Source: Candidatus Woesearchaeota archaeon (GTDB lineage: Archaea; Nanobdellota; Nanobdellia; SCGC-AAA011-G17; GW2011-AR18). From it: a stretch of 64,000 nucleotides of DNA. Shown piece after piece: positions 2,843-61,456 of the stretch. Location of the stretch: contig JAGVZM010000002.1 of the NCBI GenBank assembly GCA_018302545.1, positions 2,198 through 66,197 on the forward strand. Reading direction: 5' to 3'. Position 1 is the stretch's first letter. Every line of letters starts with the position of its first letter. Below the pieces are notes generated by a model. The model ran no database searches. It saw only the letters and a program-made list of their open reading frames with translations, and was not told the origin of the DNA. Position numbers and translations under genes: made by a program.

Positions 2843-4307
2843 AACAGAGGTTATTCTTAGTATAACTCAAACCATTTATACCATAGAATTCTTTGGTTTC
2901 ATCAGAAACATAAATAAAATTAATATTATACTTCCTCAATAAATCTAAAGCTAATGCTTCACTAGGAGTAGTATAAATAAGTTCTATATCCCTATATCTA
3001 ACAACTGGATCAGGAGCAACTGCAAAATTAGTGTCTATCACATTTTTCCTCATGCCATAATAATTTATTAGATTACCCTCTTCAAAATTTCCCAAGATAA
3101 CATGCTCAGGTAGAGTATTAATACTTAACCACTTAATTTGCTTTACTTTATTATCTGTTAATTGTCGAGAATTATTAGCAGAATCATAAGAAGGAATAAA
3201 AGATAAAAAAATAAAAGAGAATATTAAAACAACTACGAATACTGTTCTCAATCTAATAAACTTAAAATTACTAAAATAGTCATAAACCAAAGTAAAAGTA
3301 GAAGAAGAAAACACACATAGAACTAAACCTAAAAAAATTAAACCAATAGATATTGATAAAAATCTAAAAAAAAGCAATATTAAAACTGAAAGACCAAAAG
3401 AAGCAAGTAAATAAGCAAGTTTCTTCTTTTCTCTTATAACACTAACATAAACCCCAAAAGCTCCCAAAACTAGAGGTAAAAGACCCAATCCAAAGATTAA
3501 ATCTGTAGAGGAAAATTGTCTAAAGAGATCATTAAAAATATTAGAAGGGATATTATTCCAGAGCAAGCCTAATCCATGTTGCAAAATCATTTTTTTATAT
3601 ATTAAAAGTTGTAATAATAAGATTAGAAAAGAAGAGAAGAAAATTGCTTCCTTTTTAATCCTAGTGGAAGATAAAGCTCCTCCAGATAATAAAAAAAGAT
3701 ACAAAAAACCCATAAAAACAAATAGTAGAGAAGAAGGATGTAATAAAGGCAACAAAAAGGAACCTAGAACAAAAAACCAAAGATATTTCTTATCATCCAA
3801 TCTAGTCAAACTATATACCATAAGTAATAAAAGTGGCAGAATAAATGTGTAAATAGAAAGATTATTTAGAGTTTCATAAAATATTAAAGGATAAAACCCA
3901 AAAAGCAAAGAAGAGAATAAAGCACCAAAAGAATTACCGCTTATATCTTTAGATACTAAATAAACCACAAAAACAGTTAAAGAAATTGCTAACTCAGGAA
4001 TCAACTTCAACATAAAAACAGAACCAAAACTAAATAACGCCATTAAAATATGAAATAAATGAGGATAGATTACATCAATACCACCATAACTCAAAGGATC
4101 ATAAATCATTACAGTTCCTTTTTCTAATATGTGTTCAATATACTTCAAGTGAAAATAAGCATCATCGGTATTGAAATATTCTACCTGAAAAGCAAAGTAC
4201 ATTCTAAATGCTAAAATAAATAAAAAGATAAGTAAAAGTAAAATATGTTCAACTTTTATCTTCTTCATTAGTTTTCTCCCCAGAGGATATATTTTCACTA
4301 TTAACAT
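2799..4307 (-). CDS. polytopic GT-C-fold membrane protein, short AglB/STT3-like oligosaccharyltransferase homologue with degenerate catalytic motif
   Basis: 502 aa; first loop FNTDDAYFHLKYIE (compare STT3 FDPYFNYR); WWDYG position reads LINYYGMR followed by KNVIDTNF (compare DNNTW); more likely start is M14 (MKKIKVEH) at 4268. Confidence 0.5.
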   Translation of the reverse strand: MLIVKIYPLGRKLMKKIKVEHILLLLIFLFILAFRMYFAFQVEYFNTDDAYFHLKYIEHILEKGTVMIYDPLSYGGIDVIYPHLFHILMALFSFGSVFMLKLIPELAISLTVFVVYLVSKDISGNSFGALFSSLLFGFYPLIFYETLNNLSIYTFILPLLLLMVYSLTRLDDKKYLWFFVLGSFLLPLLHPSSLLFVFMGFLYLFLLSGGALSSTRIKKEAIFFSSFLILLLQLLIYKKMILQHGLGLLWNNIPSNIFNDLFRQFSSTDLIFGLGLLPLVLGAFGVYVSVIREKKKLAYLLASFGLSVLILLFFRFLSISIGLIFLGLVLCVFSSSTFTLVYDYFSNFKFIRLRTVFVVVLIFSFIFLSFIPSYDSANNSRQLTDNKVKQIKWLSINTLPEHVILGNFEEGNLINYYGMRKNVIDTNFAVAPDPVVRYRDIELIYTTPSEALALDLLRKYNINFIYVSDETKEFYGINGLSYTKNNLCFESFREGRYYFVHC

Positions 4308-14141: not shown

Positions 14142-15557
14142 ATGAAAGTAATAGCTAGAGAGATAATCCAAAATAAAATATTATATGATTTAATATACAA
14201 AGAAAAGTATGACTTTAAAACAAAATTAAAGATTTTTTTGGGTAATCGTCCTTTCATTACAATATTAAAAAAACAAAGAGAAAGAAATAAACTTTATGAA
14301 GGAGAATTAGTTGTAGTAAGGATTAATAAAGAAAATAGAATATACGAATTCATAACAAAAATTAGGGAATGGGGAAAAATAAATATCCCCATTAAAATAA
14401 TTAAAGATTTATCAATAAAAAACAAAGAAAAATTAAAGATAGAATTAATTAAAAATAAAGAATTTAAAAACATAAACAGAGAAAACACTATAAATCTAAC
14501 GAACATAATAAGGTTTAATAAGAAGTTAGAGATTATAAATAGAAATGAAAAGTATATAACAATTTACAAAACAAGTTGTATACCAATTACAATTCCTAGA
14601 ATAATAAAGATAAATGAAGATTTGATAGAAGCAATTTATTTACTGCATGGAGATGGACATTATCAAAAAAAATTATATTTTTCAAACAAGAATTATGATC
14701 TACATAAATTTATAATAAACACTTTCAATAAACAATTATTTATTCCTAAAAAACTATGGAGATATAGAATTAACCACAATAAAAGAGAATTAATAGATAA
14801 AGCAAAAAATTTTTGGATAGAAAATTTAAAGGCAAATAAAAAGAGATTTTATGAAACAAGAAAATTAAGCAGTTTTAATACAGTAAAATATGGAAACTTA
14901 AGATCAATAATAGATAATACAATAGTTTCAGAAATATTCAATTATTTAATTCATAAAATCAAAATAGATAAAGAAAGACTAAGTTTAATTGCTTTAAATG
15001 GAATACTCTCAGCAGAGGGGAATGCTCAAATAGATAAAAAAGGTTTGCACAAAATAACAATTGCATATAACGAAGACGAGAAACAAATGTTCATTAATTT
15101 ATTAATAAAATCAAACCTAAAGAATTTCAAAATAGAACAGAATAAAAGGTTTTGTATTAGAAAATGGGAGCACCAATACAAATTCATCAAAAAATTTCTT
15201 TCAAATAATCTTATACCCTTCAATAAACATAGTGAGAGAAGATTAAACCTTATAATAGGTTTTCTAAATCATTCATACACAAGATCTGCAATAAAATATC
15301 TAGAGATATTAAAACAAGGAAAGAGTTATGAAGAGATAGCAAAAACATTAAATCATAGAAAGGATTCAGTTTTAGAGTTACTCAAAAAAGATAGATATAA
15401 AAAGTTTACTAAGAAAACAATTTCAGGTAAGATTAAGATAAATAAGAGAGGTAAAGAGTTTATAGAAATAACAGAAAAATTAAAAAACATGTTAAAAGAA
15501 ACAGAAAAAGAATATTTAGAGTACATAAAACCAATAAACAAATTCAAGGAGGAGTAA
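14142..15557 (+). CDS. free-standing double-motif LAGLIDADG homing-endonuclease-like protein with extra N- and C-terminal domains
   Basis: 471 aa; LAGLIDADG-type motifs AIYLLHGDGHY and LNGILSAEGNA about 110 aa apart; N-terminal about 150 aa includes WGKINIPIKIIKDLSIKNKEKLKIEL (AbrB/SpoVT-like hairpin, weak); C-terminal HTH-like GKSYEEIAKTLNHRKDSV; its stop TAA abuts the cbf5 ATG. Confidence 0.7.
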   Translation: MKVIAREIIQNKILYDLIYKEKYDFKTKLKIFLGNRPFITILKKQRERNKLYEGELVVVRINKENRIYEFITKIREWGKINIPIKIIKDLSIKNKEKLKIELIKNKEFKNINRENTINLTNIIRFNKKLEIINRNEKYITIYKTSCIPITIPRIIKINEDLIEAIYLLHGDGHYQKKLYFSNKNYDLHKFIINTFNKQLFIPKKLWRYRINHNKRELIDKAKNFWIENLKANKKRFYETRKLSSFNTVKYGNLRSIIDNTIVSEIFNYLIHKIKIDKERLSLIALNGILSAEGNAQIDKKGLHKITIAYNEDEKQMFINLLIKSNLKNFKIEQNKRFCIRKWEHQYKFIKKFLSNNLIPFNKHSERRLNLIIGFLNHSYTRSAIKYLEILKQGKSYEEIAKTLNHRKDSVLELLKKDRYKKFTKKTISGKIKINKRGKEFIEITEKLKNMLKETEKEYLEYIKPINKFKEE

Positions 15558-16562
15558 ATGAAATTACCGTTTGAAGAAGAAAATAGAAAAATTTTAGTGA
15601 AGAAAGAAGCTTCCACAGATCCCAAATTTGGGAAAAAACCAGAAGAACGAACAGTAAGAGAACTGTTAGAGTCTTCGGTAATATGTTTAAACAAAGTAGA
15701 AGGTCCTTCTTCACACCAAGTAGCAGACTATGCAAAAAAAGCTCTAGAAGTAGAAAAAATCGGTCACGGCGGGACACTTGGAATCTTTTAAGATTAGTGA
15801 AATCCTGCAGTAACTGGGGTTCTACCTATATCTATAGGAAAAGCTACAAGAATAATGGAGGCTCTTCTAAAATCAGGAAAAGAATATATTTGTTTAATGC
15901 ACATACATACTAAAGTTCAACAATCAAAGATACACAAAGTAGCTAAACAATTCTTAGGAAAAATAACCCAAATGCCTCCTGTAAAGTCTGCAATTAAAAG
16001 ACAATTAAGACAAAGAGAAATTTATTACTTAGAAATCCTAGAAATAAAAGATCAAGATGTACTTTTCAAAGTAGGATGTCAAGCAGGAACCTACATAAGA
16101 ACACTCTGTGTTGGATTTGGAAAAGAATTAGGAACCAATGCGCACATGCAGCAATTGATAAGAACAAAGGCAGGACCATTTAATGACAAAGAATGGTATT
16201 CTCTACAAGACATAAAAGACGCATATCAATTATACAGAGAAGAAAAAGAAGAACAATTAAAGAAAATTCTAAAACCAATAGAGTTTGCCATACAACATTT
16301 ACCTAAAGTATGGGTAAATGATAATACTATAGATTCAATATGCCATGGCGCATCATTAAAAGTCCCAGGAATAATAAAAGTCCATTCAAAGATAGAAAAA
16401 GAAGAATTAGTAGCTATAATGACTTTAAAAGAAGAATTAGTTGCTTTAGGAACATCAAAGATGAATTCAGAAGAAATGATAAAAAATCAAAAAGGATTAG
16501 CAATAAAAACAACAAAAGTCTTTATGGATCGAAATACATACCCTAATTTTAAAAAAGCTTAA
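15558..16562 (+). CDS. cbf5: tRNA/rRNA pseudouridine synthase Cbf5 (TruB family + PUA), CDS join(15558..15780,15802..16562) after removal of a 21-nt BHB intron
   Basis: Both ORF-track pieces share one frame. Exon 1 ends ...EKIGHGGTL and exon 2 begins (D)PAVTGVLPISIGKATRIMEALLKSGKEYICLMHIH. The spliced product is 327 aa with GTLDP restored and a C-terminal PUA domain. Confidence 0.85.
15781..15801 (+). other. BHB (splicing-endonuclease type) intron within the cbf5 coding sequence
   Basis: GAATCTTTTAAGATTAGTGAA; in-frame TAA, TAG and TGA; outer helix 15769-74/15803-08, bulge TGG, central helix CACT/AGTG, bulge AAA, inner helix AATCT/AGATT with a TTTA loop. Confidence 0.8.
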
Positions 16563-16586: not shown

Positions 16587-16808
16587 ATGACAAAATGTAA
16601 ATATGAATATCAACAAATAGGATACATTAATTGCAATTATAATGGAGAATGTCCATATAAAAAATTAAATGAAGGAATTAGATGGGAATTAGATGAACTA
16701 GGTCCTACCTGTGAAAGACCTAAAGACCTAGAACCCCCAAAATTAGTAGATCTCCCAAATAAAAATAGAAGGCTAGAAACAATATTAGAATTTCTTCACC
16801 TAGTATAA
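16587..16808 (+). CDS. hypothetical small Cys-containing protein (weak)
   Basis: 73-aa ORF; its 3' end overlaps the convergent HerA-like gene; no family recognised. Confidence 0.25.
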   Translation: MTKCKYEYQQIGYINCNYNGECPYKKLNEGIRWELDELGPTCERPKDLEPPKLVDLPNKNRRLETILEFLHLV

Positions 16809-18868
16809 ACAACATCATACTTAACTAGATTACATTCCTTATGACTCTTAACCTCAACGAAATTCTTCAAAATTTTCAAAACATCTTCAAGATTATATTT
16901 AATCTCCAATTTATCATCAAAACTAAAGGGAATAAATTCATTCTTTTCATAACAAACAAATTCATTCAATCTCAATAAGGTATTCAAATTATTATGAAAA
17001 ACAAACCCATTACCTTCCTGAACTAAAAACATTTTACTAACTAAACTAGTTAATAAACTCAAAGCTTTAGAAAATTGTATTCCTGTTTTAGCAAATACAT
17101 CTGCAGCAGTAAATTTTTTATTCATTTCTATACAAGTAGCTAAAACTTTTATCTCTTCTTTACTCAATTTATCAAAATCCAAGAAAAAATCAACACCAAC
17201 TCCCCTCTCAAGATCGTTAATTATCTGCCCATTATATAGATTAATTAAAAGATTAAACTCTTTATTATTTTTTATACAAGTAAACATATAACATGGGATC
17301 ATAATAGCTTTCAGACTCTCAATCTTCCTATTAACCAAACCTTTAATCTCTTCTTTAGTAACCTTAGGTCTTATCATACTAACAACTTCCTTACCAGTAT
17401 CATTCCATTGTCTTTTTTTAACTTCAACATCTTCAGAAATTAATTGTTTAGGTAATTCTTCATATTCAATATCCGCATCAACAAAAGTACCAACAACATC
17501 TATACTTTGACCACCATGCAAAGTCATTCTAGGTCTGACATCAATAAACAAAGGCATATCAGAAATACCCACAAGCATAGCAGTTCCTACATGCAAATTA
17601 ACAATTTCCTTCTCAGTCTCAGAAGTTATACCTTCAACAGAATTACTTATAGATTTAAGATCATTAGGATTAGTTATTTTTAATATAAATTGAGTACTAC
17701 ATTGTGAAAGAACAGTCTTGTCTAAACGTGCAGGTCTTTGTGTAACTAAAGCAACACCTAAACCGAACTTTCTACCTTCAGCTATTACTTGTCTTAAAAT
17801 AGGAGAGCTTTTAGCTTCTCCAAAATTTCTTTCAGGAGAATAATTATGAGCTTCCTCCACAACCAAAAAAAATGGTGGAATTTCCCCTCTTTTTCTAGCA
17901 CTAAATAAATCATTAACTAATTTATAAACAATAATCTCTTGCACTTCTTGGGGCACCCCTCTTAAATTAAGAATACTACATTTTCCAACTTTAACCAAAT
18001 CATTTGGAGTTGTACCATCAGATTCAGAAAATATATTTAAACTTTTCAAATAATCAATAACATTTATTAAAGTCCATTTAGCATTATTCTCTTCTGATTG
18101 TAAACTCAGCATTAATTGATCAAAATCATTTACTCTATTAATATTACTTAAAGCACCATACAATAAACCCATTTGACTGCCGCTTAATTTAGCAGGAAGC
18201 ATATGCATTAATTCACTTCCAGTCATGCCTTTTGTATTTAATTTTAAAAGTTTAGCTTCTGGATTTTTCTCAACATCAGGACTAAATTCTTGTATTTGTT
18301 TAAAATAACCTTTAGGTTCTAATCCGAATTTTTTTAACATCTCTCCATCTTTACTAGGATACTTTAAACTAGAATATTCTCCATGTGGATCAATAACAAC
18401 AATTGGAATTTTTCTTTCTAAAATTTCTTCTAAAAGAATAGAAACCAAATATGACTTTCCAGATCCAGACTTAGCTAATACTGCTAGATGTTTAGTAATT
18501 ATTTTATTTAAATCCAAATAAACTTTAATATTTTCTCTATCTTCTAACACCCCCACATAAGCACCCCTTTTACTTTCTTTTAAACCCAAAATATTCCTAA
18601 CTATCTCATCTTCAGCATATTCTATCTCTGCACCGGGTTCCAATGGTGTCCTTAAATTTCTTAAAATACCAAATTTATCTCTATAACCCATAATATTACA
18701 TTTAGCTTTAGTTTCTTCTTTCTCTTTTTGAACATCTACAATTTGAGCTAAAACAATATAATCTTCTTTATGTTTCGCTTTAACATACATAAATTTCTTA
18801 GCAGTATCCTCTACTAGAAAGTAAAATTCATTAGTACCACTTTTTCCAATTATATGTCCAAGGACCAT
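16796..18868 (-). CDS. herA: HerA-like (DUF87/FtsK-HerA superfamily) ATPase with about 230-aa C-terminal extension
   Basis: 690 aa; N-terminal HAS-barrel-like MVLGHIIGKSGTNEFYFLV; Walker A AKSGSGKSY; Walker B FFLVVEEAH; arginine-finger region LVTQRPARLDK; extra C-terminal domain with possible winged helix. Confidence 0.7.
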   Translation of the reverse strand: MVLGHIIGKSGTNEFYFLVEDTAKKFMYVKAKHKEDYIVLAQIVDVQKEKEETKAKCNIMGYRDKFGILRNLRTPLEPGAEIEYAEDEIVRNILGLKESKRGAYVGVLEDRENIKVYLDLNKIITKHLAVLAKSGSGKSYLVSILLEEILERKIPIVVIDPHGEYSSLKYPSKDGEMLKKFGLEPKGYFKQIQEFSPDVEKNPEAKLLKLNTKGMTGSELMHMLPAKLSGSQMGLLYGALSNINRVNDFDQLMLSLQSEENNAKWTLINVIDYLKSLNIFSESDGTTPNDLVKVGKCSILNLRGVPQEVQEIIVYKLVNDLFSARKRGEIPPFFLVVEEAHNYSPERNFGEAKSSPILRQVIAEGRKFGLGVALVTQRPARLDKTVLSQCSTQFILKITNPNDLKSISNSVEGITSETEKEIVNLHVGTAMLVGISDMPLFIDVRPRMTLHGGQSIDVVGTFVDADIEYEELPKQLISEDVEVKKRQWNDTGKEVVSMIRPKVTKEEIKGLVNRKIESLKAIMIPCYMFTCIKNNKEFNLLINLYNGQIINDLERGVGVDFFLDFDKLSKEEIKVLATCIEMNKKFTAADVFAKTGIQFSKALSLLTSLVSKMFLVQEGNGFVFHNNLNTLLRLNEFVCYEKNEFIPFSFDDKLEIKYNLEDVLKILKNFVEVKSHKECNLVKYDVVYTR

Positions 18869-32089: not shown

Positions 32090-33397
32090 TTAATGACGGT
32101 TTGATTTCTTCTTAACATTACTAGAAGCCATTTTAAGCATTTTTAAAGCATAATTAACAGGATTCTTGCATTTACTACAAATACCGTCATCACATTTAAT
32201 GCTCATAGTTTTATAATAACTAGGGTTATCACAATTAGGAGGCAAAACCAATTTCTTCTGCCTTTTAAACCAACTTATCTGAGCCTTAACATAACCTTCT
32301 CTTAAAGGTTCAGCATTTCTTTTATTCCACTCAAGCATAAACTTCTCTATATCTTCTAGATTCCAACCAACATTTTGTAAAAAGTTAACTAAAATAAAAA
32401 TGCCTCTCTTCCTTCCATCTTCCTCTACGCCTTGCATTAATTTTAAAATACAAGGAGGAAAATAATCAACCTTTATTGGAACCTTAGGAGCCTCAAACTT
32501 TCTAGTAATTGTTATTTGTTTCTCTTCAATATAATTAGTTTTTCTAGCCCAATCAAAAGCTTGTATCAACAAATTTTTAGCTTCATCCTTTTCAACATTC
32601 TCTGAATCTAAAAATTTCAATCCAAATTTGACATTATCTATCTTTGCCTGTCTAATGTCAAAATCCTTAATAGTCTTCAAAGGTATACTAACTAACCCAG
32701 ATTTTTCATTTATACTATAAGCACATCTAAACAAATGTCTACTAGATATTAAAACACTATCGATATCTACTAACTTAAAAGGATCCAATTTATTCTCTTT
32801 AATAACATCTTCAACTTTTTTTCCAACACTCTTAGCAGCATCTTCTACTGTATGAGTCTCTAAAATCTTAGCACTTAAATGTTCTTTAATCATATTCTTA
32901 AGATATTCAGAAATAACTCTCACACCATCAGGAAAATAATCTTTTATATTAACATTATTAACATTAGAAGGGAAAGCTTCAAAAGGAATACCAATATGGA
33001 ATCCACGATTACCTGAATATTTTATAGAAAAATTCTTAACATCATTAAACCTTAAAGCATCTTCTAAAAATTCAGCGCACATAATACTAAAGTTTAAATT
33101 TTTACTATCCAAATCCAAGATACAACTCCAACCAATCCTTAAGTTATCTAATTCTTTCTTACTCAAACCACTTTCAAGCATCATAGGATCTTTCCAAATT
33201 TCCTCACTAACATGAAAAGAAGTCATACCTTGTTTAACTAAATCATTAATATCTCCCTGAAAATTAACAATCTCTGGTCTTTTTCCCCTAATATCTCCAA
33301 ACCAAGCCTGAACCTCTCTATTTTGAGATAGTCTCATCAATTCTTTTTGAACTTCGTTTTGAGAATAATACTCTTTTATTTTTTTAAGATCAGACAT
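32090..33397 (-). CDS. priS: archaeo-eukaryotic DNA primase, PriS catalytic domain fused to PriL-CTD-like domain
   Basis: 435 aa; AEP motifs ILDLDSKN (DxD), YSGNRGFHIGIP, SRHLFRCAYSINEKSG; C-terminal FPPCILKLMQG...RGIFILVNFLQNVGW...PPNCDN...C..C..C resembles the PriL Fe-S C-terminal domain. Confidence 0.8.
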   Translation of the reverse strand: MSDLKKIKEYYSQNEVQKELMRLSQNREVQAWFGDIRGKRPEIVNFQGDINDLVKQGMTSFHVSEEIWKDPMMLESGLSKKELDNLRIGWSCILDLDSKNLNFSIMCAEFLEDALRFNDVKNFSIKYSGNRGFHIGIPFEAFPSNVNNVNIKDYFPDGVRVISEYLKNMIKEHLSAKILETHTVEDAAKSVGKKVEDVIKENKLDPFKLVDIDSVLISSRHLFRCAYSINEKSGLVSIPLKTIKDFDIRQAKIDNVKFGLKFLDSENVEKDEAKNLLIQAFDWARKTNYIEEKQITITRKFEAPKVPIKVDYFPPCILKLMQGVEEDGRKRGIFILVNFLQNVGWNLEDIEKFMLEWNKRNAEPLREGYVKAQISWFKRQKKLVLPPNCDNPSYYKTMSIKCDDGICSKCKNPVNYALKMLKMASSNVKKKSNRH

Positions 33398-33465: not shown

Positions 33466-34005
33466 TCATCTTCTATTATAAATACTAACCCCTGCATTAG
33501 TCAATCTAAATTTAACAAAATATTTTCTTAAATCTAAATTTCTAACTACGCATTCAAAGACTCCTAAAGCCCCTTGATGACTAACAATTAAAATAGTTCC
33601 AGAATTATGTTTCTGTAATATGTAACTATAAAATTTCTTAATCCTCTTTTGGACGTCCAACCAATTCTCACCACTAAAAGATTTCTGATGAAATTTATCT
33701 CCTTTCAAATCAGCATGTTCATATTCTTCCTTGCTTTTACCTTCAAAGATACCATATCTTTTTTCTCTTAATAACCTGTTCTTAATAATCTTAACATTAT
33801 GATATTTAGCGATAATTTTAGCAGTATCAAGACATCTTTTCAAATCACTTGTATAAATAATCTCAATTTTATTATTTTTTAAAGATTTAGCAGTCTTCTC
33901 AACTTGATCCTTTCCTTTCTGAGTTAAATGCCCAGGTAACCAACCTTGAATTATATGTTTTCTATTTTCTCTAGTTTGACCATGCCTGACAAAAATTAAT
34001 TTCAT
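33466..34005 (-). CDS. histidine phosphatase (phosphoglycerate mutase-like) family protein
   Basis: 179 aa; MKLIFVRHGQTRENRK (RHG motif) ... IVSHQGAL. Confidence 0.8.
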   Translation of the reverse strand: MKLIFVRHGQTRENRKHIIQGWLPGHLTQKGKDQVEKTAKSLKNNKIEIIYTSDLKRCLDTAKIIAKYHNVKIIKNRLLREKRYGIFEGKSKEEYEHADLKGDKFHQKSFSGENWLDVQKRIKKFYSYILQKHNSGTILIVSHQGALGVFECVVRNLDLRKYFVKFRLTNAGVSIYNRR

Positions 34006-34036
34006 AATAATAAAAAGAAGAGGATTACTTATAAAT

Positions 34037-34441
34037 CTAATTCATACCTTGTATTTCTTTTTGTAATTGCATTAATTTATTTCTAGTATTATTAATCTCA
34101 GTTTTTAATTGAATCATAAAATCACTAACTTCTTGCATTTGGATATTGACTGTCTGTTTAGCTTCATGCAAACTCTTTTCAACACAAAGATTACTACCAA
34201 CATTCATTACAACACTTTGATTATCATTTAAAGAACCTTTCAAAAAAATCCCATTACCTAAGGGAATTAAAGATTCAGTATCTTTTTTAGTATTAGAAAT
34301 AACATCTAAATTCTCATTTAATTTCATAAGATCATTTATGTGTTTTTCTATGTTTTCAGAATTTTGCTCTAATTGTTGTAATTGCTGCATTAACATCTGA
34401 AATTCCATATACTTATGTTGCATTTGATTATTTTCAGACAT
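34037..34441 (-). CDS. pfdA: prefoldin alpha subunit
   Basis: 134 aa; coiled coils flanking ESLIPLGNGIFLKGSLNDNQSVVMNVGSNLCVEKSLHEA (double beta-hairpin of the alpha class). Confidence 0.75.
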   Translation of the reverse strand: MSENNQMQHKYMEFQMLMQQLQQLEQNSENIEKHINDLMKLNENLDVISNTKKDTESLIPLGNGIFLKGSLNDNQSVVMNVGSNLCVEKSLHEAKQTVNIQMQEVSDFMIQLKTEINNTRNKLMQLQKEIQGMN

Positions 34442-34836
34442 TATTCTTTTTTAGAAGAAGTTTTCTTCTTAACTACTTTTTTAATTTTAGACTCTTTTTT
34501 ATTGTCAAGTTTAGATTCCTCAGGCTTATCCAAATGTTTTTGTAAAGATTTTCTAATCTTAACAGGCTTTTGTTTTTTATCTCTAGCCTCTCCTTCCTTA
34601 GGTTCTTTAAAATCGAAACCTGCTTCTTTCAAAGCTTTTCTAACTTCTTCTGTTTTGGCTCCTTTTTTAATCTTAGCTTGGCTACCTAAAAATTCCAAAT
34701 GAATTAAATTACATTTTTTTCTTCTTGTTAATCCATCCACTAAAACAAATTTATCATCAACAACATCAACAACTGCGCACAATTGCCCAGCATCTCTTCC
34801 AGCAATCTTCAAAGCAATTTCCCCAACTTTAACCAT
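34441..34836 (-). CDS. rpl14e: 50S ribosomal protein L14e with K-rich C-terminal tail
   Basis: MVKVGEIALKIAGRDAGQLCAVVDVVDDKFVLVDG...RRKKCNLIHLE (KOW). Confidence 0.85.
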   Translation of the reverse strand: MVKVGEIALKIAGRDAGQLCAVVDVVDDKFVLVDGLTRRKKCNLIHLEFLGSQAKIKKGAKTEEVRKALKEAGFDFKEPKEGEARDKKQKPVKIRKSLQKHLDKPEESKLDNKKESKIKKVVKKKTSSKKE

Positions 34837-35119
34837 CTTGTTTCACCATGCCTTTTGCTTTTTGAACCATAACCTTCCTCATGCAACCACTACAAAGAAC
34901 CCCTCCATAAGGTCTCTCTGGTCTTTTTTGAGTCTTACTTAATTTTTTAATTTGAGCAACTATTCCTCTAGCAACCCCAATTAAATATTTGCCACAATCT
35001 CTACATTGAGGTTTACCTGGTTTTCTTCTCTCATAATGAATGACATTATCCCCAGTAGGAGTTCTTCTATGAACTCTTCTCAAACTTCTTGATCTAAATC
35101 TTGGTTGTACCATTTTCAA
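34829..35119 (-). CDS. rpl34e: 50S ribosomal protein L34e
   Basis: MVQPRFRSRSLRRVHRRTPTG...CRDCGKYL...LCSGC zinc-ribbon pattern. Confidence 0.85.
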   Translation of the reverse strand: MKMVQPRFRSRSLRRVHRRTPTGDNVIHYERRKPGKPQCRDCGKYLIGVARGIVAQIKKLSKTQKRPERPYGGVLCSGCMRKVMVQKAKGMVKQDG

Positions 35120-35571
35120 TGCACCTTCAAAATCTTTCTTAATATTAAACTAAATATAAGGGAAAAGACAATATAATTACCTATTCCCCCCATACCTAAA
35201 AAGACAGTACCAAAAGGTTCATAAATGTTTCTTATCCAAGTAAATATCAATATAAAAGGAATAAGAGTAACTAACATAGGTTTTAAGCTCTGTTTAAATT
35301 GTTGAATTATTAAATCCATTTGCTCTGCTTGTACTTTCTTATTAACTTCCATCATTTTCTTAGGATCATTCTTATGCTTCTTAATTTCATTCTGCATTTC
35401 TTTAGACCTTTCCTTAAAAGATTTCATCAGTTCTTGATCTGTCAAATATTTAAAAGCCAATAAAGAAACTAAAGATAAAATAAAAGAGATTACAATTATC
35501 CCAAATAATGGGCTTATATTTATAGCCCAACCAAACAAAAATCCTAAAATCTGATCTACAAAACTAACCAT
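35116..35571 (-). CDS. DUF106 / EMC3-TMCO1-like membrane protein (archaeal YidC/Oxa1-like insertase)
   Basis: 151 aa; TM, then coiled coil QELMKSFKERSKEMQNEIKKHKNDPKKMMEVNKKVQAEQMDL, then 2 TM; conserved position after secY. Confidence 0.7.
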   Translation of the reverse strand: MVSFVDQILGFLFGWAINISPLFGIIVISFILSLVSLLAFKYLTDQELMKSFKERSKEMQNEIKKHKNDPKKMMEVNKKVQAEQMDLIIQQFKQSLKPMLVTLIPFILIFTWIRNIYEPFGTVFLGMGGIGNYIVFSLIFSLILRKILKVH

Positions 35572-35572
35572 T

Positions 35573-36946
35573 TTAACTATCCCCCCCCATCATCTTTCTC
35601 AAAGAAGGATGCATATCCATCATATGTTGTTTAGCTATATCCTCATATAATTTATATATAATCATAACAGCTAATAAGATACCTGTACCTCTTGACAAAG
35701 CTCCAAGCAAATCTGCTCCTGCAGCAATCAAACCAATAGATAAACCACCCATAACAGTCAAAGGAAAAATATATCTCTCTAGTATTCTCTCTAAAATTCT
35801 TTGATCAGTCCTAAATCCAGCTACATGCAATCCAGCAGCCCTAATCTGTTTAGCTTGACTTTGTGCATTCATACCTGCACTTTGCACCCAAAAAATAGAG
35901 AACACAACAGAACCCAAAGCTAAAACAACCATATAAACCATTGCCTTGAAAACATCACTTGCCACTAAACTTCCGGAGATAGCATTAAGTACTATAGGAC
36001 TACCACTAACCCAAGATGCAATTGAAGTAGCAGTAGCAGAACTAACTATTTCCCTTGTTTGTAAAAAAGTAACTGCTAGTTGTATATTAGCCAACAAAGC
36101 AGCTATTAATATAACTGGAATATTACTTGTGTATAAAAAATTCAGAGGCCATCTAACCCCATACCCTCTCACTCTTCCAAAACTTAAAGGAATTTCTACT
36201 TTCATAGCTTGTCCATAGACACTTATAACAAATACAATAATAGTCGCAATTATTGCAAAAGCAGCTGTAAAAGCCTCACTAGTAGAACCATTAATCAAAC
36301 TTAAAATAAAAACAAAGAATGCGCCAATAGGAGCACCATCAGAACCAACTCCAAAAGCAAAAGTGCCACTACTAGTCAAAGGACTAAAAGCCCTAATAAA
36401 GATCTCAGCAGCAACACCTGAAGCTATAAACAGACTAACACCTGAACCAAAACCCCATTTGTTAGTAACTTCATCCATATAAAATATTAAAATACCTCCA
36501 ATAATCAACTGAGTTATTAAAATATATTCCATACCAGGTTGTGCTCTTAAACCATTTAACATAACATAGACAATTGCTTCAAAAATAATAAAAAACCAAG
36601 TAGTTAATTTTTGTAAACTCTGAAAAAAAGTCCTACCATCATGTGTAGTTGTATCTATCTTTAAGATACCAGAACCAACAAGTAACTGTAAAACAATAGA
36701 TCCGGTAACAATAGGACCTATTCCTAAACTTAAAATAGAACCAAAGCTAGCACCAAGGATAATAGATAATTCTCTAAATTGTGAAAGTGCATTACTTTCT
36801 AAACCATATAAAGGAATCACTCCTAAAATAAAAAAAGAAACTAAAATCATTAAAGTCCATTTTAACTTAACTTTAAAATCCAACTTTTTCTCTGGTTTTC
36901 TTACCTCTGGTATAAAAGAAACTACCTTAGTTACTAGATCCTTCAT
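35573..36946 (-). CDS. secY: preprotein translocase subunit SecY
   Basis: 457 aa, 10 TM; follows L15 as in all archaeal spc clusters. Confidence 0.9.
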   Translation of the reverse strand: MKDLVTKVVSFIPEVRKPEKKLDFKVKLKWTLMILVSFFILGVIPLYGLESNALSQFRELSIILGASFGSILSLGIGPIVTGSIVLQLLVGSGILKIDTTTHDGRTFFQSLQKLTTWFFIIFEAIVYVMLNGLRAQPGMEYILITQLIIGGILIFYMDEVTNKWGFGSGVSLFIASGVAAEIFIRAFSPLTSSGTFAFGVGSDGAPIGAFFVFILSLINGSTSEAFTAAFAIIATIIVFVISVYGQAMKVEIPLSFGRVRGYGVRWPLNFLYTSNIPVILIAALLANIQLAVTFLQTREIVSSATATSIASWVSGSPIVLNAISGSLVASDVFKAMVYMVVLALGSVVFSIFWVQSAGMNAQSQAKQIRAAGLHVAGFRTDQRILERILERYIFPLTVMGGLSIGLIAAGADLLGALSRGTGILLAVMIIYKLYEDIAKQHMMDMHPSLRKMMGGDS

Positions 36947-37397
36947 CTTTATTTATGATAACACCACCCTTTTCTTGAATTTTCTTACTTGCACTATTTG
37001 AAATATGCTCAGCATCTAATTTTAATTTAACACTCAATTCTCCTGTTCCTAACAATTTTTGATAACCTAACTTACTCAAATTCACAATATACATATCTTT
37101 CTCTTTGCTAATCAGCTTACTTTCCAAATAAAAGTTTAATTTCTTTTGTAAATCTTTTATATTAATAGCTTTAACTTTTTTAATCATCTTCTGAGGTCTA
37201 TGAAATCCTCTTTTACCAAAATATTCATTACCATATAATTTTAAAATAGTAGGCTTTTTTTGATCAGCCCTCTTTCCAGTTCCAGCCATGCCCTTACCGC
37301 CCCTATTACCTGCACCTCTTCTCTTCTTTTTACTGCCACAACCATGTGTATGACTTCCTCTGTACCTTGAAAGCTTTCCTCTCTTATTTACTGTCAT
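36927..37397 (-). CDS. rpl15: 50S ribosomal protein L15 (uL15)
   Basis: GSHTHGCGSKKKRRGAGNRGGKGMAGTGKR; operon position. Confidence 0.9.
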   Translation of the reverse strand: MTVNKRGKLSRYRGSHTHGCGSKKKRRGAGNRGGKGMAGTGKRADQKKPTILKLYGNEYFGKRGFHRPQKMIKKVKAINIKDLQKKLNFYLESKLISKEKDMYIVNLSKLGYQKLLGTGELSVKLKLDAEHISNSASKKIQEKGGVIINKDEGSSN

Positions 37398-37861
37398 AGC
37401 ATTTTCCTCACAAGATTATTTATTTCTTTACCCCTATATCCTAAAGAACCACCTAAACTAAAAGGTTTTTTTATACCTTCTCTCTCAAAGCCCCCGCGAG
37501 GTGGAGTCAATCTAAAAAAAGGTTTTAAACCTGGAACTTCTTTTAGTTTAACTTTTCCTTCAATAAAATTATTAATAAATTCATCAAATCCTGCTTTAGC
37601 ATTATCTTTTAAATATTTTTCAGTTAGAGGATGGTTGCCTACTATCTTGCCTCTTTTCTCAAATAATAATTTAACAGTCTCTTTATCTGCCTCTCCCCAA
37701 GTAATATAATCCTTAAGTCTCGCCAACATACCTATTCTTTCAGGAGTATTATCAACAAGCACACAACTATTTTTCTTTATTAGTTTAAGAGATTTCAAAG
37801 TATCTTTAAAATTTCTATTAATATTTAAAACTCCTCTAACTTGAACAACAGCTAATTTCAT
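37394..37861 (-). CDS. rpl30: 50S ribosomal protein L30 (uL30)
   Basis: LAVVQVRGVLNINRNFKDTLKSLKL; operon position. Confidence 0.9.
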   Translation of the reverse strand: MKLAVVQVRGVLNINRNFKDTLKSLKLIKKNSCVLVDNTPERIGMLARLKDYITWGEADKETVKLLFEKRGKIVGNHPLTEKYLKDNAKAGFDEFINNFIEGKVKLKEVPGLKPFFRLTPPRGGFEREGIKKPFSLGGSLGYRGKEINNLVRKML

Positions 37862-38586
37862 AATTCACTCCTAACAAAAGCACCATCAACAACTCCAGAT
37901 TGAGCACAAAAATCATCATTAACCTTAACTTTATTCAATTCTCTCAAAGCTTCGAAAGTAGCCATGAAAAAATTCAGTTTTGTTGAAGTATTCCCTAAAC
38001 TCTTAGAATAAACATCTTTAATACCCGCTAATTCTAGAATCTTTCTACACTTTCTTTCTGCATTCAAACCAGTTCCCCTAGGTGCAGGTTTAAATGTTAC
38101 TTCTACACTACCATGTTTTCCATAAACTCTAAAAGGAATTGAATGATGGGTTTTACAACCACAGTCCCAAGATCCACAACCTCTTCTAATCTTAATAAGA
38201 TTTAATTTAGCATTTCTAATAGCCTTCTCTCTTGCAGGTACAGTTTCTTTACTACTTCCAAAACCAACACCAACAAAACCATTTTTGTTACCCACAACAG
38301 CAAATGCAGAAAACTTCATTCTAGATCCCTCTGAAGTTATTTTTTGAGTTTGTTTCCAAATACTCCCTTTACCACCACCAAACTTACCCTTACTTTGACC
38401 AACTTCTAAAAGTTGTGTCTCTAAATCAGGCAATAAAGCATCTACTAACTCAGCCTCAAGAATTCTATAACCACTATCAAGGATGTAAGCAATATCTGTT
38501 ATCTCTCCAGATTTCACTCTTCTACCTAACTCAGTCTTAGGATTCCACTCCTCCAAATTAAATGTTTTACCTTTTAACATTTGCAA
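37858..38586 (-). CDS. rps5: 30S ribosomal protein S5 (uS5)
   Basis: FAVVGNKNGFVGVGFGSSKETVPAREKAIRNAK; operon position. Confidence 0.9.
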   Translation of the reverse strand: MQMLKGKTFNLEEWNPKTELGRRVKSGEITDIAYILDSGYRILEAELVDALLPDLETQLLEVGQSKGKFGGGKGSIWKQTQKITSEGSRMKFSAFAVVGNKNGFVGVGFGSSKETVPAREKAIRNAKLNLIKIRRGCGSWDCGCKTHHSIPFRVYGKHGSVEVTFKPAPRGTGLNAERKCRKILELAGIKDVYSKSLGNTSTKLNFFMATFEALRELNKVKVNDDFCAQSGVVDGAFVRSEL

Positions 38587-39154
38587 TCATCTTCTCCTTA
38601 GCTTGATCAAAATATTTGCTTAAATCTTCTGGTTTAAATCCATTTTTAAGATAAACAGAAAACTGCTTCTTATAAACTTCACTATCTTTAACCTTTTTAG
38701 CATAATCCTCTATATGTTTACCAGAAACTCTATCTTCACTTGGTAAAAAAGATTCATTAACCTTAACTTTAAATCCTGAATCAATCAATCCTTTAGAAAC
38801 ACCAAATAAAGAAGAGCCCTTAACAACCCTATTAAATCCAAAATCAATAATTCCAGTATCAATACCTTTTTGTAAAGCTTTAAGACCACATAAAAAACCA
38901 ACAAGATAAGAAGAAGGTAAATTTCCTCTATGAGCTTTCCAACCATATTTAATAAGTTCTCTCGAATGGCTAGAAACCAAAACTTTGTCACCTTTTAAAT
39001 CAAAACCTACAATCTGAACAAGTATATTATTCAAAGAAATCCTAACAATCACTCTAAACATATTAGAAGATATAAGTTTCAACCTAGTCCTATAATCTGT
39101 TTTCCCTTCTCTCTTTCTTCTATAAGCCAAAGTATATGCATTTCCTTTTTTCAT
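38567..39154 (-). CDS. rpl18: 50S ribosomal protein L18 (uL18)
   Basis: YRRKREGKTDYRTRLKL; operon position. Confidence 0.9.
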   Translation of the reverse strand: MKKGNAYTLAYRRKREGKTDYRTRLKLISSNMFRVIVRISLNNILVQIVGFDLKGDKVLVSSHSRELIKYGWKAHRGNLPSSYLVGFLCGLKALQKGIDTGIIDFGFNRVVKGSSLFGVSKGLIDSGFKVKVNESFLPSEDRVSGKHIEDYAKKVKDSEVYKKQFSVYLKNGFKPEDLSKYFDQAKEKMIANVKR

Positions 39155-39612
39155 TTTTTATCCTTCTTTAACCATAATTCATGTTCTGTTAAGTAAAGTT
39201 TTATATGTCTTCTGCTTCTGAAAAATCCCCCTCTAGATTTAACTCTCAAGTGCCTATAAGTTTCTCTAGAGATTTTTTGATCAGTAACCAATGAAGAAAC
39301 TAAGTCTCTCTGAGCTCTAATAGAATTCATCCAATTTTGTTTTCTAGACAATCTTGCAGTTTCTTTTCCTTTCTTATTACCTGGACCATTTCTTCTACCC
39401 TTACGTTTTTGGATTATTCTCTTTCTTATTCTAGATCTTGATATTCCTCTTTTAGGTTTAACTAAAATTACTCCATTAGAGATTAAACCTCTTAAATCTT
39501 CTTTAGTCACAGCTTCTTTAATTTCATTAGACTTCTCAGGATTAAACCAAACTCTACCCAAACCAATATCTAGTAACCTAGCAACCATTTCTTTTTTACT
39601 TCTTAGGTTCAT
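39151..39612 (-). CDS. rpl19e: 50S ribosomal protein L19e
   Basis: LLDIGLGRVWFNPEK...RKGRRNGPGNKKG; operon position. Confidence 0.9.
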   Translation of the reverse strand: MNLRSKKEMVARLLDIGLGRVWFNPEKSNEIKEAVTKEDLRGLISNGVILVKPKRGISRSRIRKRIIQKRKGRRNGPGNKKGKETARLSRKQNWMNSIRAQRDLVSSLVTDQKISRETYRHLRVKSRGGFFRSRRHIKLYLTEHELWLKKDKK

Positions 39613-40270
39613 TCTTCTTCACTCCTTTCTTCTTTGGCTTAGATTCTTTAGTTGATTCCGTATTTTCTGCATAAGGATCTATCCTATGATCATCTTTATC
39701 TAATCCTTTAGAATTGCTAGTATCTTCTTTCGAATCTTTATGATGTGAATGATCATGATCTTTATGTTCATGAGATTCTTCTTTCTTTTTTTCTTTTGCT
39801 TCACTTAATTTTTTCTTTTTCTGCTCTTTTCTAGATGCAGAACCTTGTTTTTTAGAAATCAAAATATCTTTAACACTAACAACATAAGCTTCTATATCTT
39901 TAACACCCAAGACTTTAAGGCCTAAAGATTTAGCCTTATCTAAAATTAATAATCTCTTTTTAATGCCTACTCCAGAAGAGATAATCACACAACAATTTTC
40001 TACTACTTTACTGAGATCATTAATATTAGAAACAAGAATAGGCATTAATCCATGTTTGGTTAAACCTTTAACTAAATTAGGACCCGCATAACCTATTGAA
40101 GGAATATTCCTATGCCCTCTAAAACCTCTTCTTAATTTACTTTGAATACCTTTAGGTTTTCTCCACTTTCCTCTAAATTGTTTAATCTTATTAGCTTCTT
40201 GTCTCTCAAAAGGAGGAGTTTTATCTTTAATTTTCTTTCTCAAATCCAATAAAGGTTTTATTTTATTCAT
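39596..40270 (-). CDS. rpl32e: 50S ribosomal protein L32e with about 80-aa K/E/H-rich C-terminal tail
   Basis: FERQEANKIKQFRGKWRKPKGIQSKLRRGFRGH; tail ...SHEHKDHDHSHHKDSKED... Confidence 0.9.
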   Translation of the reverse strand: MNKIKPLLDLRKKIKDKTPPFERQEANKIKQFRGKWRKPKGIQSKLRRGFRGHRNIPSIGYAGPNLVKGLTKHGLMPILVSNINDLSKVVENCCVIISSGVGIKKRLLILDKAKSLGLKVLGVKDIEAYVVSVKDILISKKQGSASRKEQKKKKLSEAKEKKKEESHEHKDHDHSHHKDSKEDTSNSKGLDKDDHRIDPYAENTESTKESKPKKKGVKKNEPKK

Positions 40271-40818
40271 TCTTCATCTCCTGGTTTTAAAATAATAAAA
40301 CAACCATCTTGGAATATTCTTCTATCCCTATTTGTAATTCTAGTGTTTTGCTCTATCTTAGCAGCAGTCTGACCTACCTTCTCTTTATCTAATCCATCGA
40401 CTAAAATAAGGTCACCTTGAACCTTTACAGATACCCCATCAACAAAGCTTGTCTTTCTAGGAACTTTTTCACCTAAAAAATTCTTAATAACAAGAGAATT
40501 ACCTTCAACAGTAACAGTCATAGGGAAATATCCTGAACATATCTTCAACTTAGCTTTATATCCTTCTTGAACTCCTATAAACATATTTCTTACATGTGCT
40601 TTATAAGTATTCATAAACATTTTATCAGAATTAGAAAATCTAACACCATTCTTATTCTTAAAAATAACTACCCCATTTTCAACAACCATAACAATTCTTG
40701 GGTTCAAAAAAGTTCTTTCTAAACTACCTTTAGTTCCCTTAACAAAGATAGTATTATTCTCTACTTTAACTTCCACTCCTTGTGGAATACTAAGTTGAGC
40801 AACGTAAATTTTCTTCAT
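40267..40818 (-). CDS. rpl6: 50S ribosomal protein L6 (uL6)
   Basis: 183 aa, two-domain uL6 pattern; operon position between S8 and L32e. Confidence 0.9.
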   Translation of the reverse strand: MKKIYVAQLSIPQGVEVKVENNTIFVKGTKGSLERTFLNPRIVMVVENGVVIFKNKNGVRFSNSDKMFMNTYKAHVRNMFIGVQEGYKAKLKICSGYFPMTVTVEGNSLVIKNFLGEKVPRKTSFVDGVSVKVQGDLILVDGLDKEKVGQTAAKIEQNTRITNRDRRIFQDGCFIILKPGDEE

Positions 40819-40819
40819 T

Positions 40820-41212
40820 TTAATAACAATAAGCTATAAGCTTGCCTCCAATGCCTTTATCTAAAGCCTCTTTATGAGTCATAATTCCTTTTGAAGTAGT
40901 CACAATAAATAAACCAAAATTTTTAGAAGGTAAATATCTTTTTTCAAAAGTTTCATAATTATCCTTTGTAAAAGAAAATCTAGGTTTGACAACTCCACAT
41001 TTATTTATATTACCTATTAAATTAATTTTTATCCATCCCCCTCTAGACTCATCAACAACAGAAAAGTCACCAATATAATTACTATCCTTAAGTAATGTTA
41101 ACACTGAAACCAAAATTTTAGATTTAGGTCCAACTAAACATTCATTCTTACCCTGTTTCTCACTGTTTAAAATATGACTTAAACAATTTGCTAATGGATC
41201 ATTCAAACTCAT
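40820..41212 (-). CDS. rps8: 30S ribosomal protein S8 (uS8)
   Basis: NDPLANCLSHILNSEKQGK; operon position. Confidence 0.9.
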   Translation of the reverse strand: MSLNDPLANCLSHILNSEKQGKNECLVGPKSKILVSVLTLLKDSNYIGDFSVVDESRGGWIKINLIGNINKCGVVKPRFSFTKDNYETFEKRYLPSKNFGLFIVTTSKGIMTHKEALDKGIGGKLIAYCY

Positions 41213-41220
41213 TTTTCCTC

Positions 41221-41451
41221 CTAGCTAAATTTCTTAAAACCAATTTTCTTAGCATCCTCCCTAAAACACATTCTACACATCTGAATTCCATAACATCTTA
41301 TATGAGCACCAAATCTACCACATCTTCTACACCTTCTCAAACCAATTCCAGTAGTCCTAATTTTAGGTGAATTATGCTTCAAAAATTTCTTCTTTTTAGA
41401 TTTTTTCGCATCTAGTTGTTTAAAAACCTTAGTAAATTCTTTAATAGTCAT
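41221..41451 (-). CDS. rps14: 30S ribosomal protein S14 (uS14, zinc-ribbon type) with N-terminal extension
   Basis: [25 protein letters not shown]; 76 aa. Confidence 0.85.
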
Positions 41452-41963
41452 TATTCATCCTCCAACACCAAACTAAATTCTTTTTTCATGAAATCCATAG
41501 CTTGAACATCACTAATATTGTGCCTGCTAGGAATCTTTCTTTTTAATTTGGATCTTCTCTTAATTCTAAATCCTTTTCTGCTTAAAGTAACAGCCGCTTC
41601 TAAACCTATAACTCCTATACTCGCTTCATAAGGAACTTCAGGAATATCTATATACTCTTTAATACCAAATGAAAAATTACCAAACTTATCAAACTTTCTC
41701 ATAGAAATACTATTATCCATTGCACTCAACAATCTTTTCAGGAGTTTAGAAGCTTCCTTTCCTCTAACCGTAACTTTACATGCAATAGGTAATTTAGGTC
41801 TAACCCCCCAAGTAGGAATTCTCTTATCACTACTTGTTTGAACAGGTTTCCTTCCAGAGATATTTTTAAGTAATCTCATAGCCTTATCTAATTTATCTCC
41901 AGGACTACCAACCCCAATGTTAAGGGTAACTTTTTCAACATGTATTTCTCTCATTAGATTCAT
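41451..41963 (-). CDS. rpl5: 50S ribosomal protein L5 (uL5)
   Basis: [22 protein letters not shown]...; operon position. Confidence 0.9.
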
Positions 41964-42676: not shown

Positions 42677-42677
42677 T

Positions 42678-43055: not shown

Positions 43056-43056
43056 T

Positions 43057-45558: not shown

Positions 45559-45559
45559 T

Positions 45560-45958: not shown

Positions 45959-45960
45959 AT

Positions 45961-61321: not shown

Positions 61322-61456
61322 CGCAAGTTCAAATCACAAGAGTTTCGCAATATTTAAGTAATACAAGCCATAAGTACAATATAACTAGGAGAAAACAAAA
61401 CAAGAGGGTGAAGCGTTATTCGTCAAAACCCACTCTCGAAAGTTCAGATCATAAAG

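Follow-up and report, generated by a model that had tools for sequence, protein, structure and literature searches.

The classic intron of an archaeal protein-coding gene is the one in the pre-mRNA of crenarchaeal cbf5 (Watanabe et al. 2002; Yoshinari et al. 2006; Yokobori et al. 2009, PMC2738675). It lies between the first and second letter of the catalytic Asp codon, is 16–44 bp long, non-coding, has bulge-helix-bulge (BHB)-like borders, and its published range is Desulfurococcales and Sulfolobales. Splicing of cbf5 was shown in Sulfolobus and Aeropyrum, as cited in PMC2738675 and PMC10485636. Reviews up to 2023 state that only a small group of related Crenarchaeota carry this intron and that it is one of just two spliced archaeal mRNAs (PMC10485636, PMC7714728). 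Here we analyzed cbf5 in a 64-kb stretch of DNA (in the following, the window) from a Woesearchaeota archaeon (DPANN), in which the gene is interrupted at the same nucleotide position. All features of the locus described below are on the + strand. We found no report of the intron in DPANN, Woesearchaeota or Bathyarchaeota in the literature searched, which is absence of evidence only.

The gene is present as two open reading frames in the same frame, 15558..15791 (77 aa) and 15855..16562 (235 aa). Public gene calls give these two fragments, as predicted in the initial annotation, and report the first as a 77-aa DKCLD fragment. The 21 nt at 15781–15801 (GAATCTTTTAAGATTAGTGAA) encode GIF, stop, D, two further stops and N in frame. 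The first exon (15558..15780) extends from Met1 to the first base, G, of the catalytic Asp75 codon and contains the DKCLD domain, whereas the second (15802..16562) runs from the AU of this codon through the stop codon and comprises the TruB_N, TruB_C_2 and PUA domains. A Shine-Dalgarno-like GGAGGAG (15548..15554) is found just before the cbf5 AUG, inside the end of the upstream ORF, the stop codon of which (UAA, 15555–57) abuts AUG 15558.

With RNAfold, the minimum-energy structure of 15765–15812 is exactly the motif proposed in the initial annotation, with an energy of −14.2 kcal/mol and z = −3.06, and the same structure is kept in a 121-nt context. The outer helix consists of 6 bp between 15769..15774 (GCGGGA, exon 1, from the Gly-Gly-Thr codons) and 15803..15808 (UCCUGC, exon 2, from the Asp-Pro-Ala codons), five of them Watson-Crick pairs and one a G-U pair (G15771-U15806). 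The central helix is formed by four Watson-Crick pairs between 15775..15778 (CACU, exon 1) and 15796..15799 (AGUG, intron). It is flanked on opposite strands by the 3-nt bulges UGG (15779..15781) and AAA (15800..15802), which are found in the minimum-energy and the centroid structure. The inner hairpin (15782..15795) has a 5-bp helix, 15782–86/15791–95, and the loop UUUA. Both flanking helices fulfill the definition of at least two Watson-Crick pairs each (PMC7714728). The intron, GAAUCUUUUAAGAUUAGUGAA, carries in-frame UAA, UAG and UGA.

Cleavage after the second nucleotide of each bulge, that is after 15780 and after 15801, is predicted to join CUU G to AU CCU (GGGACACUUG to AUCCUGCAG). Among all in-frame excisions of 15–30 nt starting at 15771–15791, only this joining of 15780 to 15802 gives GTLDPAVTG. 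In-silico splicing yields a protein of 327 aa, which scores 420.7 bits against the NCBIfam Cbf5 equivalog NF003280 (cut-off 242) and 395.5 bits against TIGR00425. PUA matches residues 242–314, and GGTLDP aligns without a gap across the junction to Pyrococcus furiosus Cbf5 (3lwo). This holds only for the spliced sequence. To estimate how often such a motif arises by chance, the window was scanned for BHBs. With loose criteria, the hits are at chance level in this AT-rich DNA (94 on the + strand compared to about 114 simulated). In comparison, a BHB as strict as the one in cbf5 (outer helix at least 6 bp, inner at least 5 bp, four Watson-Crick central pairs, intron at most 30 nt) is expected about 0.1 times per 64-kb strand. 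The cbf5 motif is the only such hit on the + strand and falls on the one position that repairs the gene. The only other short hit under strict criteria, 17152–17178 on the minus strand, is AT-rich and lies in frame inside the HerA-like ORF, and we judged it to be chance.

The assignment to a DPANN-like rather than crenarchaeal lineage in the initial annotation is right. The nearest Cbf5 sequences (69–73% identity) are from Candidatus Woesearchaeota/Nanoarchaeia MAGs and the neighboring ORF is recorded at NCBI as a Woesearchaeota protein. A fused PriS-PriL primase, probably a DPANN trait, is present as well.

The intron is not unique to this genome. The same site carries inserts in five Woesearchaeota/Nanoarchaeia species genomes (L010, L021, L046, L057 and L067) and in more than 115 metagenome contigs that are DPANN-, Bathyarchaeota- and crenarchaeal-like. 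The inserts are 13–42 nt long, many not multiples of three, and every one restores G joined to AY; the register observed here restores the Asp codon in the 117 confirmed metagenome cbf5 genes and in the five species genomes. Strong compensatory covariation over 80 distinct cores supports the helices. The central helix is 98.8% paired, with all four Watson-Crick pair types at its second pair (CG 55, UA 21, UG 2, AU 1, GC 1). The three inner-helix pairs sampled next to the bulges are 90.4% paired and all three covary, and the inner four pairs of the outer helix (GGGA/UCCY) are conserved. In total, 117 double-change cells were counted compared to 33.9 in shuffles, with 0 of 500 shuffles reaching the observed value, and slid controls are 30–50% paired. 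Energy z-scores of the two inserts in L046 are unremarkable; support for these rests on register and covariation. Intron-bearing and intronless Woesearchaeota are interleaved on the Cbf5 tree, and the nearest relatives (L001–L005) do without the intron, which is thus dispensable. A second recurrent intron site, between GP[S/T] and SH, and inteins in the same gene mark cbf5 as a hotspot for mobile elements in these archaea.

Taken together, we conclude with high confidence that 15558–16562 is an intact cbf5 gene expressed by splicing, although splicing itself is inferred in the absence of transcript data, and that its intron is the same element as the crenarchaeal cbf5 intron. In the proposed pathway, the tRNA splicing endonuclease EndA cuts both bulges, an RtcB-type ligase joins the exons, and the catalytic Asp of GTLDP in a box H/ACA pseudouridine synthase is recreated. 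That splicing is required for function is inferred as well, because the unspliced mRNA stops after 77 aa and the next start codon (15855) lies beyond the catalytic Asp. Neither EndA nor RtcB was found among the 20 window ORFs of suitable size scanned with Pfam; EndA is reported for DPANN lineages, in a survey that included one Woesearchaeota genome (PMC5829648). A second intact cbf5 elsewhere in the genome cannot be excluded; there is none in the window.

A decaying pseudogene, in which the 21 nt are a disabling insertion within a fortuitous hairpin, would be in accordance with the three in-frame stops, the split gene calls and the uninterrupted gene of close relatives. This is, however, very unlikely, since no other defect occurs in 984 coding bases, the full-length equivalog score is reached, the insert falls on the one register that repairs the catalytic codon, and the same site and structure occur with compensatory changes in more than 120 other genes. 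Further, the intron is 19/21 identical in the close relative L204, whose Cbf5 is only 72% identical, and both differences are at unpaired bases. An assembly or sequencing artefact could be suspected, as the source is a metagenome-assembled genome and short palindromic inserts can arise from misassembly. Yet the 21 nt are identical in three independent assemblies from different runs and assemblers (Logan SRR2090155, ENA ERZ27254754 and ERZ27254845), and a homologous 21-nt intron occurs in a distinct organism (L204/L205), itself seen in two samples, making this explanation the least probable.

Similarly improbable is that EndA cuts the BHB without the halves being rejoined, the motif acting as a decay or regulatory switch, or that the ribosome bypasses the 21 nt or two polypeptides assemble. 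The eukaryotic tRNA splicing endonuclease (TSEN) indeed cleaves mRNAs for decay without ligation (PMC10485636), and 21 nt are a multiple of three. Without ligation, however, no product contains the catalytic Asp, as the first fragment ends in GTLGIF and the first start codon after the stops is at 15855. In relatives the insert length is often not a multiple of three, which rules out bypass or read-through as a general solution.

Not noted in the initial annotation were the identity of the position to that of the crenarchaeal intron and the nature of the 471-aa ORF abutting cbf5 (14142..15557). This ORF comprises an AbrB-like N-terminal domain, a double LAGLIDADG core with the alpha-beta-beta-alpha-beta-beta-alpha double-domain fold, and a MarR-like winged helix. 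Helix 159–170 (LLHGD171G) is followed by D171-G172, invariant in 7 of 7 sequences, and helix 278–291 (ALNGILSAE292G) by E292-G293, conserved in all six sequences that cover it; the acidic residues probably correspond to D21 and E117 of I-DmoI. Pfam and NCBIfam gave no LAGLIDADG hit, and a PDB profile search found only the MarR-like C-terminus and the AbrB-like N-terminus. Every homolog found sits directly upstream of an intron-bearing cbf5 and none next to an intronless one. All 10 distinct loci with the ORF have the intron, whereas about 45 DPANN species loci with enough upstream flank lack the ORF, and only four of those have the intron. For the five loci ascertained through the ORF alone, the hypergeometric p is about 6e-5, a figure that treats the loci as phylogenetically independent and compares two differently ascertained sets. 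Comparing L204 with L001, the ORF is present or absent exactly between the upstream gene and cbf5, and it is an insertion relative to L001.

These findings suggest, but do not prove, that the ORF is a free-standing homing endonuclease linked to the intron. It would target the intronless GGNACNYTNGAYCCN (GTLDP) site of cbf5, with a break at or near GGGACACTTGATCCTG in the intronless allele only, and the BHB mini-intron would protect its own genome by splitting that site. Endonuclease and intron would then spread together by DNA-level homing, that is by "collaborative homing", so far known only for group I introns in phages. If true, this would give a mobility mechanism for archaeal protein-gene mini-introns too short to encode anything and explain the patchy distribution and the occupation of the same position in Crenarchaeota, Bathyarchaeota-like and DPANN lineages. 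The hypothesis remains tentative and is rather less likely than not. No nuclease or target data exist, and WhiA shows that this fold can be a mere DNA binder. No signal of recent co-conversion was seen, since exon 1 of the window is 71% identical to that of L204 and 70% to that of the intronless L001. Most intron-bearing genes, including all Bathyarchaeota-like and crenarchaeal-like loci, lack any member of this ORF family in the fetched locus, as judged with a family HMM. Their upstream neighbors, of which six ORFs were scanned with Pfam, are ordinary genes (M20 peptidase, transporter, Lhr helicase, M3 peptidase) plus one integrase-family gene.

The intron is present in Woesearchaeota and in many Bathyarchaeota-like contigs. 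Routine annotation silently splits or pseudogenises an essential RNA-modification gene in these genomes, affecting completeness and metabolic inferences for DPANN bins. The shared position also raises the question of ancient inheritance with many losses or repeated site-specific gain, which the linked LAGLIDADG gene makes experimentally testable.

In comparison to the crenarchaeal cbf5 intron, gene and nucleotide position are identical, the length of 21 nt falls within the published range, the borders are of BHB type, the intron is too short to encode a protein, and the distribution is patchy with lineage-specific loss. In contrast, the host is a mesophile-like Woesearchaeon with 28% G+C, and the motif is a strict 3-4-3 hBHBh', whereas the crenarchaeal ones are described as relaxed and linked to the (alpha-beta)2 endonuclease (PMC10485636). 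Further, a LAGLIDADG-fold gene abuts cbf5 here and in nine other Woesearchaeota-like loci. With the canonical archaeal pre-tRNA intron at position 37/38 the locus shares the hBHBh' geometry, and the same enzymes are presumed to act. After splicing, GCGGGA-CACUUGA-UCCUGC is a 6-bp stem with a 7-nt loop that mimics an anticodon arm, the intron being located at the equivalent of 37/38. Here, however, the context is an mRNA coding region and the exon helices are built from the Gly-Gly-Thr-Leu-Asp-Pro codons. No tRNA body is present, as Rfam finds no match at this site and the only tRNA found by ARAGORN and Rfam in the window lies at 61456–61530. The BHB intron of Haloferax volcanii HVO_1309 is likewise part of an mRNA processed by EndA, but lies in the 5'-UTR and is not needed to restore an ORF (PMC7714728).

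Regarding the adjacent gene, the closest arrangement is that of the free-standing endonuclease F-CphI next to the intron-containing psbA of cyanophage S-PM2 (Zeng, Bonocora & Shub 2009, as summarised in PMC6083498). In both cases an endonuclease-like gene sits adjacent to a gene whose most conserved site is split by a small intron encoding nothing, and is never seen without the intron. There, the intron is a self-splicing group I intron, the nuclease is of Endo VII type and cleavage of the intronless allele was demonstrated, whereas here the intron is of BHB type and the protein has a LAGLIDADG fold. In archaeal rRNA BHB introns encoding LAGLIDADG endonucleases (I-DmoI, I-Tsp061I) the endonuclease is encoded inside the intron, while here the candidate gene is found outside, upstream of the host gene.

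The sequence of the interrupted cbf5 gene proved to be exactly as described in the initial annotation, which had proposed that a 21-nt bulge-helix-bulge (BHB) intron splits the gene at its catalytic GTLDP motif. An ORF starting at ATG 15558 stops at 15789-91, and a second ORF in the same frame runs from 15855 to 16562. Between ...EKIGHGGTL and PAVTGVLPISIGKATR lie 21 nt that read GIF-stop-D-stop-stop-N in frame. Unconstrained folding of 15765-15812 with RNAfold returned the proposed structure as both the minimum-energy and the centroid fold, with a 6-bp outer helix, a 4-bp central helix, a 3-nt bulge on each strand and a 5-bp inner helix closed by a 4-nt loop. With an energy of -14.2 kcal/mol the segment is more stable than its shuffled counterparts (-7.4 ± 2.2 kcal/mol), and the structure is retained in a 121-nt context. 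Of all in-frame excisions of 15-30 nt in the neighbourhood, only 15780|15802 yields GTLDPAVTG, and this is the junction predicted by cutting after the second base of each bulge.

Chance formation and assembly artefacts were considered as alternative origins of the motif. A permissive BHB definition is of no value in this window of 28% G+C, since it gives 94 hits on the + strand in comparison to about 114 in Markov simulations. In contrast, a motif as strict as the one in cbf5 is expected about 0.1 times per 64-kb strand. It is the only such hit on the + strand and has the most G+C-rich stems. The only other short, strict BHB-like motif in the window (17152-17178, - strand; outer helix of 7 bp, inner helix of 5 bp, 27 nt) is AT-rich, lies in frame inside a 690-aa HerA-like ORF and is probably due to chance. 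The 21 nt and their flanks are identical in three independent public assemblies (Logan SRR2090155, ENA ERZ27254754 and ERZ27254845), in which gene callers report a 77-aa DKCLD fragment and a 235-aa TruB/PUA fragment. A 73-aa Cys-containing ORF without family match directly downstream of cbf5 (16587-16808, + strand) is also called in all three.

The product of in silico splicing, 327 aa in length, comprises DKCLD, TruB_N, TruB_C_2 and PUA domains and scores 420.7 bits on the Cbf5 equivalog NF003280, for which the cut-off is 242. It aligns end to end with Pyrococcus furiosus Cbf5 and without a gap at the junction, as GHGGTLDPAVTGVLP against GHGGTLDPKVSGVLP. No second cbf5 is present in the window. 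The best Cbf5 matches (69-73% identity) come from Candidatus Woesearchaeota / Nanoarchaeia MAGs, and the adjacent ORF is recorded at NCBI as a hypothetical protein of a Candidatus Woesearchaeota archaeon. In addition, a single 435-aa ORF at 32093-33397 (- strand) matches both the small and the large DNA primase subunits, and such a PriS-PriL fusion is probably a DPANN trait. The gene content had been called DPANN-like in the initial annotation, which is correct. A neighbouring run of about 30 short, tightly packed ORFs on the same strand (33466-48703, - strand) looks like the ribosomal-protein super-operon, with one histidine-phosphatase hit at its edge.

To search for the insert in other archaea, 80 species-representative genome loci were retrieved with the spliced protein. 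Five Woesearchaeota/Nanoarchaeia genomes carry an insert at the same codon, with lengths of 15 nt (locus L010), 21 nt (L021), 21 nt (L046), 15 nt (L057) and 26 nt (L067). Metagenomes were then scanned with a pattern that demands 12-42 extra bases between ...GGNACNYTNG and AYCC.... Of the resulting sequences, 117 are genuine cbf5 genes whose insert (13-42 nt, often not a multiple of three) is removed exactly by the G|AY register. By similarity and G+C content they fall into a Woesearchaeota-like group (metagenome loci L089, L112, L129, L143, L147, L160, L166, L174, L183, L187, L194 and L195), a large group whose nearest named relatives, for the representative tested (L106), are Candidatus Bathyarchaeota, and a crenarchaeal-looking group. 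More than 100 of the contigs carrying the Asp-codon intron are not DPANN-like, and they include other lineages of 40-65% G+C. The published range of Desulfurococcales and Sulfolobales appears far too narrow.

Each gene was reduced to a fixed-register core, and base pairs were counted on 80 distinct cores. The central helix is 98.8% paired, and at its second pair the counts are CG 55, UA 21, UG 2, AU 1 (the window) and GC 1. The inner helix is 90.4% paired, and all three sampled pairs covary. None of 500 shuffles reached the observed covariation, and sliding the partner strand by 1-3 columns lowered pairing to 30-50%. Within the outer helix only the four exon pairs GGGA/UCCY, which come from the Gly-Thr and Asp-Pro codons, are general, whereas the window has two extra pairs. 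A variant motif with a 3-bp central helix (CCC/GGG) flanked by 4-nt bulges (UAGA and AAGA) instead of the 3-4-3 geometry is present in a clade of six metagenome loci with 53-56% G+C (L095, L122, L126, L135, L165 and L169). The nearest intron-bearing relative with a complete gene is L204, whose Cbf5 is 72% identical to that of the window. Its intron, UAAUCUAUUAAGAUUAGUGAA, differs at two bases only, namely the third bulge base and the first loop base, which is the signature of selection on structure.

On a neighbour-joining tree of exon-2 protein sequences, intron-bearing and intronless Woesearchaeota are interleaved, and the sister group of the window (genome loci L001-L005) is intronless. Either loss is frequent, as Yokobori et al. 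argued for Desulfurococcales, or the site is repeatedly re-invaded. Further inserts were noted in the same gene. A second recurrent BHB intron site lies just upstream of the Asp-site intron, between bases 2 and 3 of the Ser/Thr codon in GP(S/T)|SH, in L046 (about 3148-3166) and in the metagenome loci L183 and L166. The lengths are 19, 20 and 13 nt, and the central helices covary (UCCC/GGGA, UCCU/AGGA, GCCU/GGGC). All three loci are Woesearchaeota-like and also have the Asp-site intron, whereas the window has no insert at this second position, of which we know no previous report. In the Woesearchaeota-like contigs L206/L207 (4697-6937) and L208 (4661-6895), exon 2 additionally carries an intein with a LAGLIDADG_3 domain, located in L206 after GTYIRKLC, another conserved active-site motif. 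Thus, cbf5 can hold an intron, an intein and an adjacent endonuclease-like gene at once.

After splicing, GCGGGA-CACUUGA-UCCUGC is a 6-bp stem with a 7-nt loop. The intron sits between loop positions 6 and 7, mirroring tRNA position 37/38, and the coding sequence of GGTLDP therefore supplies a ready-made mimic of an anticodon arm. The motif is a strict 3-4-3 hBHBh', and even the narrow-specificity alpha4 and alpha'2 endonucleases would probably cut it. DPANN EndAs are described as mostly alpha4 with an extra loop (PMC5829648). Unspliced mRNA can only give a 77-aa peptide, and the next start codon, at 15855, lies past the catalytic Asp. From this we infer, in the absence of RNA data, that active Cbf5 requires cleavage and ligation, although neither EndA nor RtcB was found in the part of the window that was scanned.

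Directly upstream, the stop codon of a 471-aa ORF (14142-15557, + strand) abuts the cbf5 AUG, and a GGAGGAG is situated inside its last codons. The ORF is not recognised by sequence libraries. Only six other proteins of this family were found in a collection of 5.8 billion proteins, and each of them lies immediately upstream of, overlapping, or fused in frame to exon 1 of a cbf5 split at the Asp codon (L204/205, L206/207, L208/209, L210/211 and L212). In two of these relatives, L208/L209 and L212, the LAGLIDADG-like ORF has no stop of its own but runs in frame through cbf5 exon 1 and ends at the stop codon created by the intron, giving 543-aa and 534-aa products with a DKCLD domain. Four more copies occupy the same place in the intron-bearing metagenome loci L166, L147, L195 and L143. 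A family HMM found no member in the other roughly 190 loci, which include about 45 DPANN loci with enough upstream flank that lack the ORF, 41 of them intronless. Relative to the intronless L001, L204 has the ORF inserted exactly between a conserved 320-aa HTH gene and cbf5.

An AlphaFold model built from the alignment of seven sequences (pLDDT 82.7, pTM 0.83) shows three parts, with an AbrB-like N-terminus, a predicted double LAGLIDADG fold and a C-terminal winged helix that is MarR-like (profile E 5.6e-4). Both LAGLIDADG helices end in conserved acidic residues, D171 and E292, which probably correspond to the catalytic positions in I-DmoI and appear to be lacking in WhiA. The arrangement matches "collaborative homing", a mechanism described for a free-standing endonuclease next to the intron-split psbA gene of a cyanophage (PMC6083498). 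This possibility is of particular interest to us but remains unproven, as no nuclease activity or target is known. We also observed no sign of recent co-conversion of exon 1, most intron-bearing genes lack the ORF, and six upstream neighbours of Bathyarchaeota-like and crenarchaeal-like cbf5 that were scanned with Pfam are ordinary genes. The linked gene with its predicted LAGLIDADG fold provides a new lead on how such introns move.

Taken together, the finding is real and the interpretation of the insert as a BHB intron is supported. According to later reviews, the cbf5 intron is confined to a small group of related archaea and is, besides HVO_1309, the only spliced archaeal mRNA (PMC10485636, PMC7714728). 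We found no paper reporting it in DPANN or Bathyarchaeota. As far as the searchable literature shows, the host range (DPANN, and by extension many uncultivated archaea) and the canonical form of the motif are new. In kind, however, the element is the known cbf5 BHB intron. For the latter, Yokobori et al. give lengths of 16-44 bp and note that it is too short to encode a homing endonuclease (PMC2738675), and the intron in the window, 21 nt long, is found at the very position they describe (G|AU).
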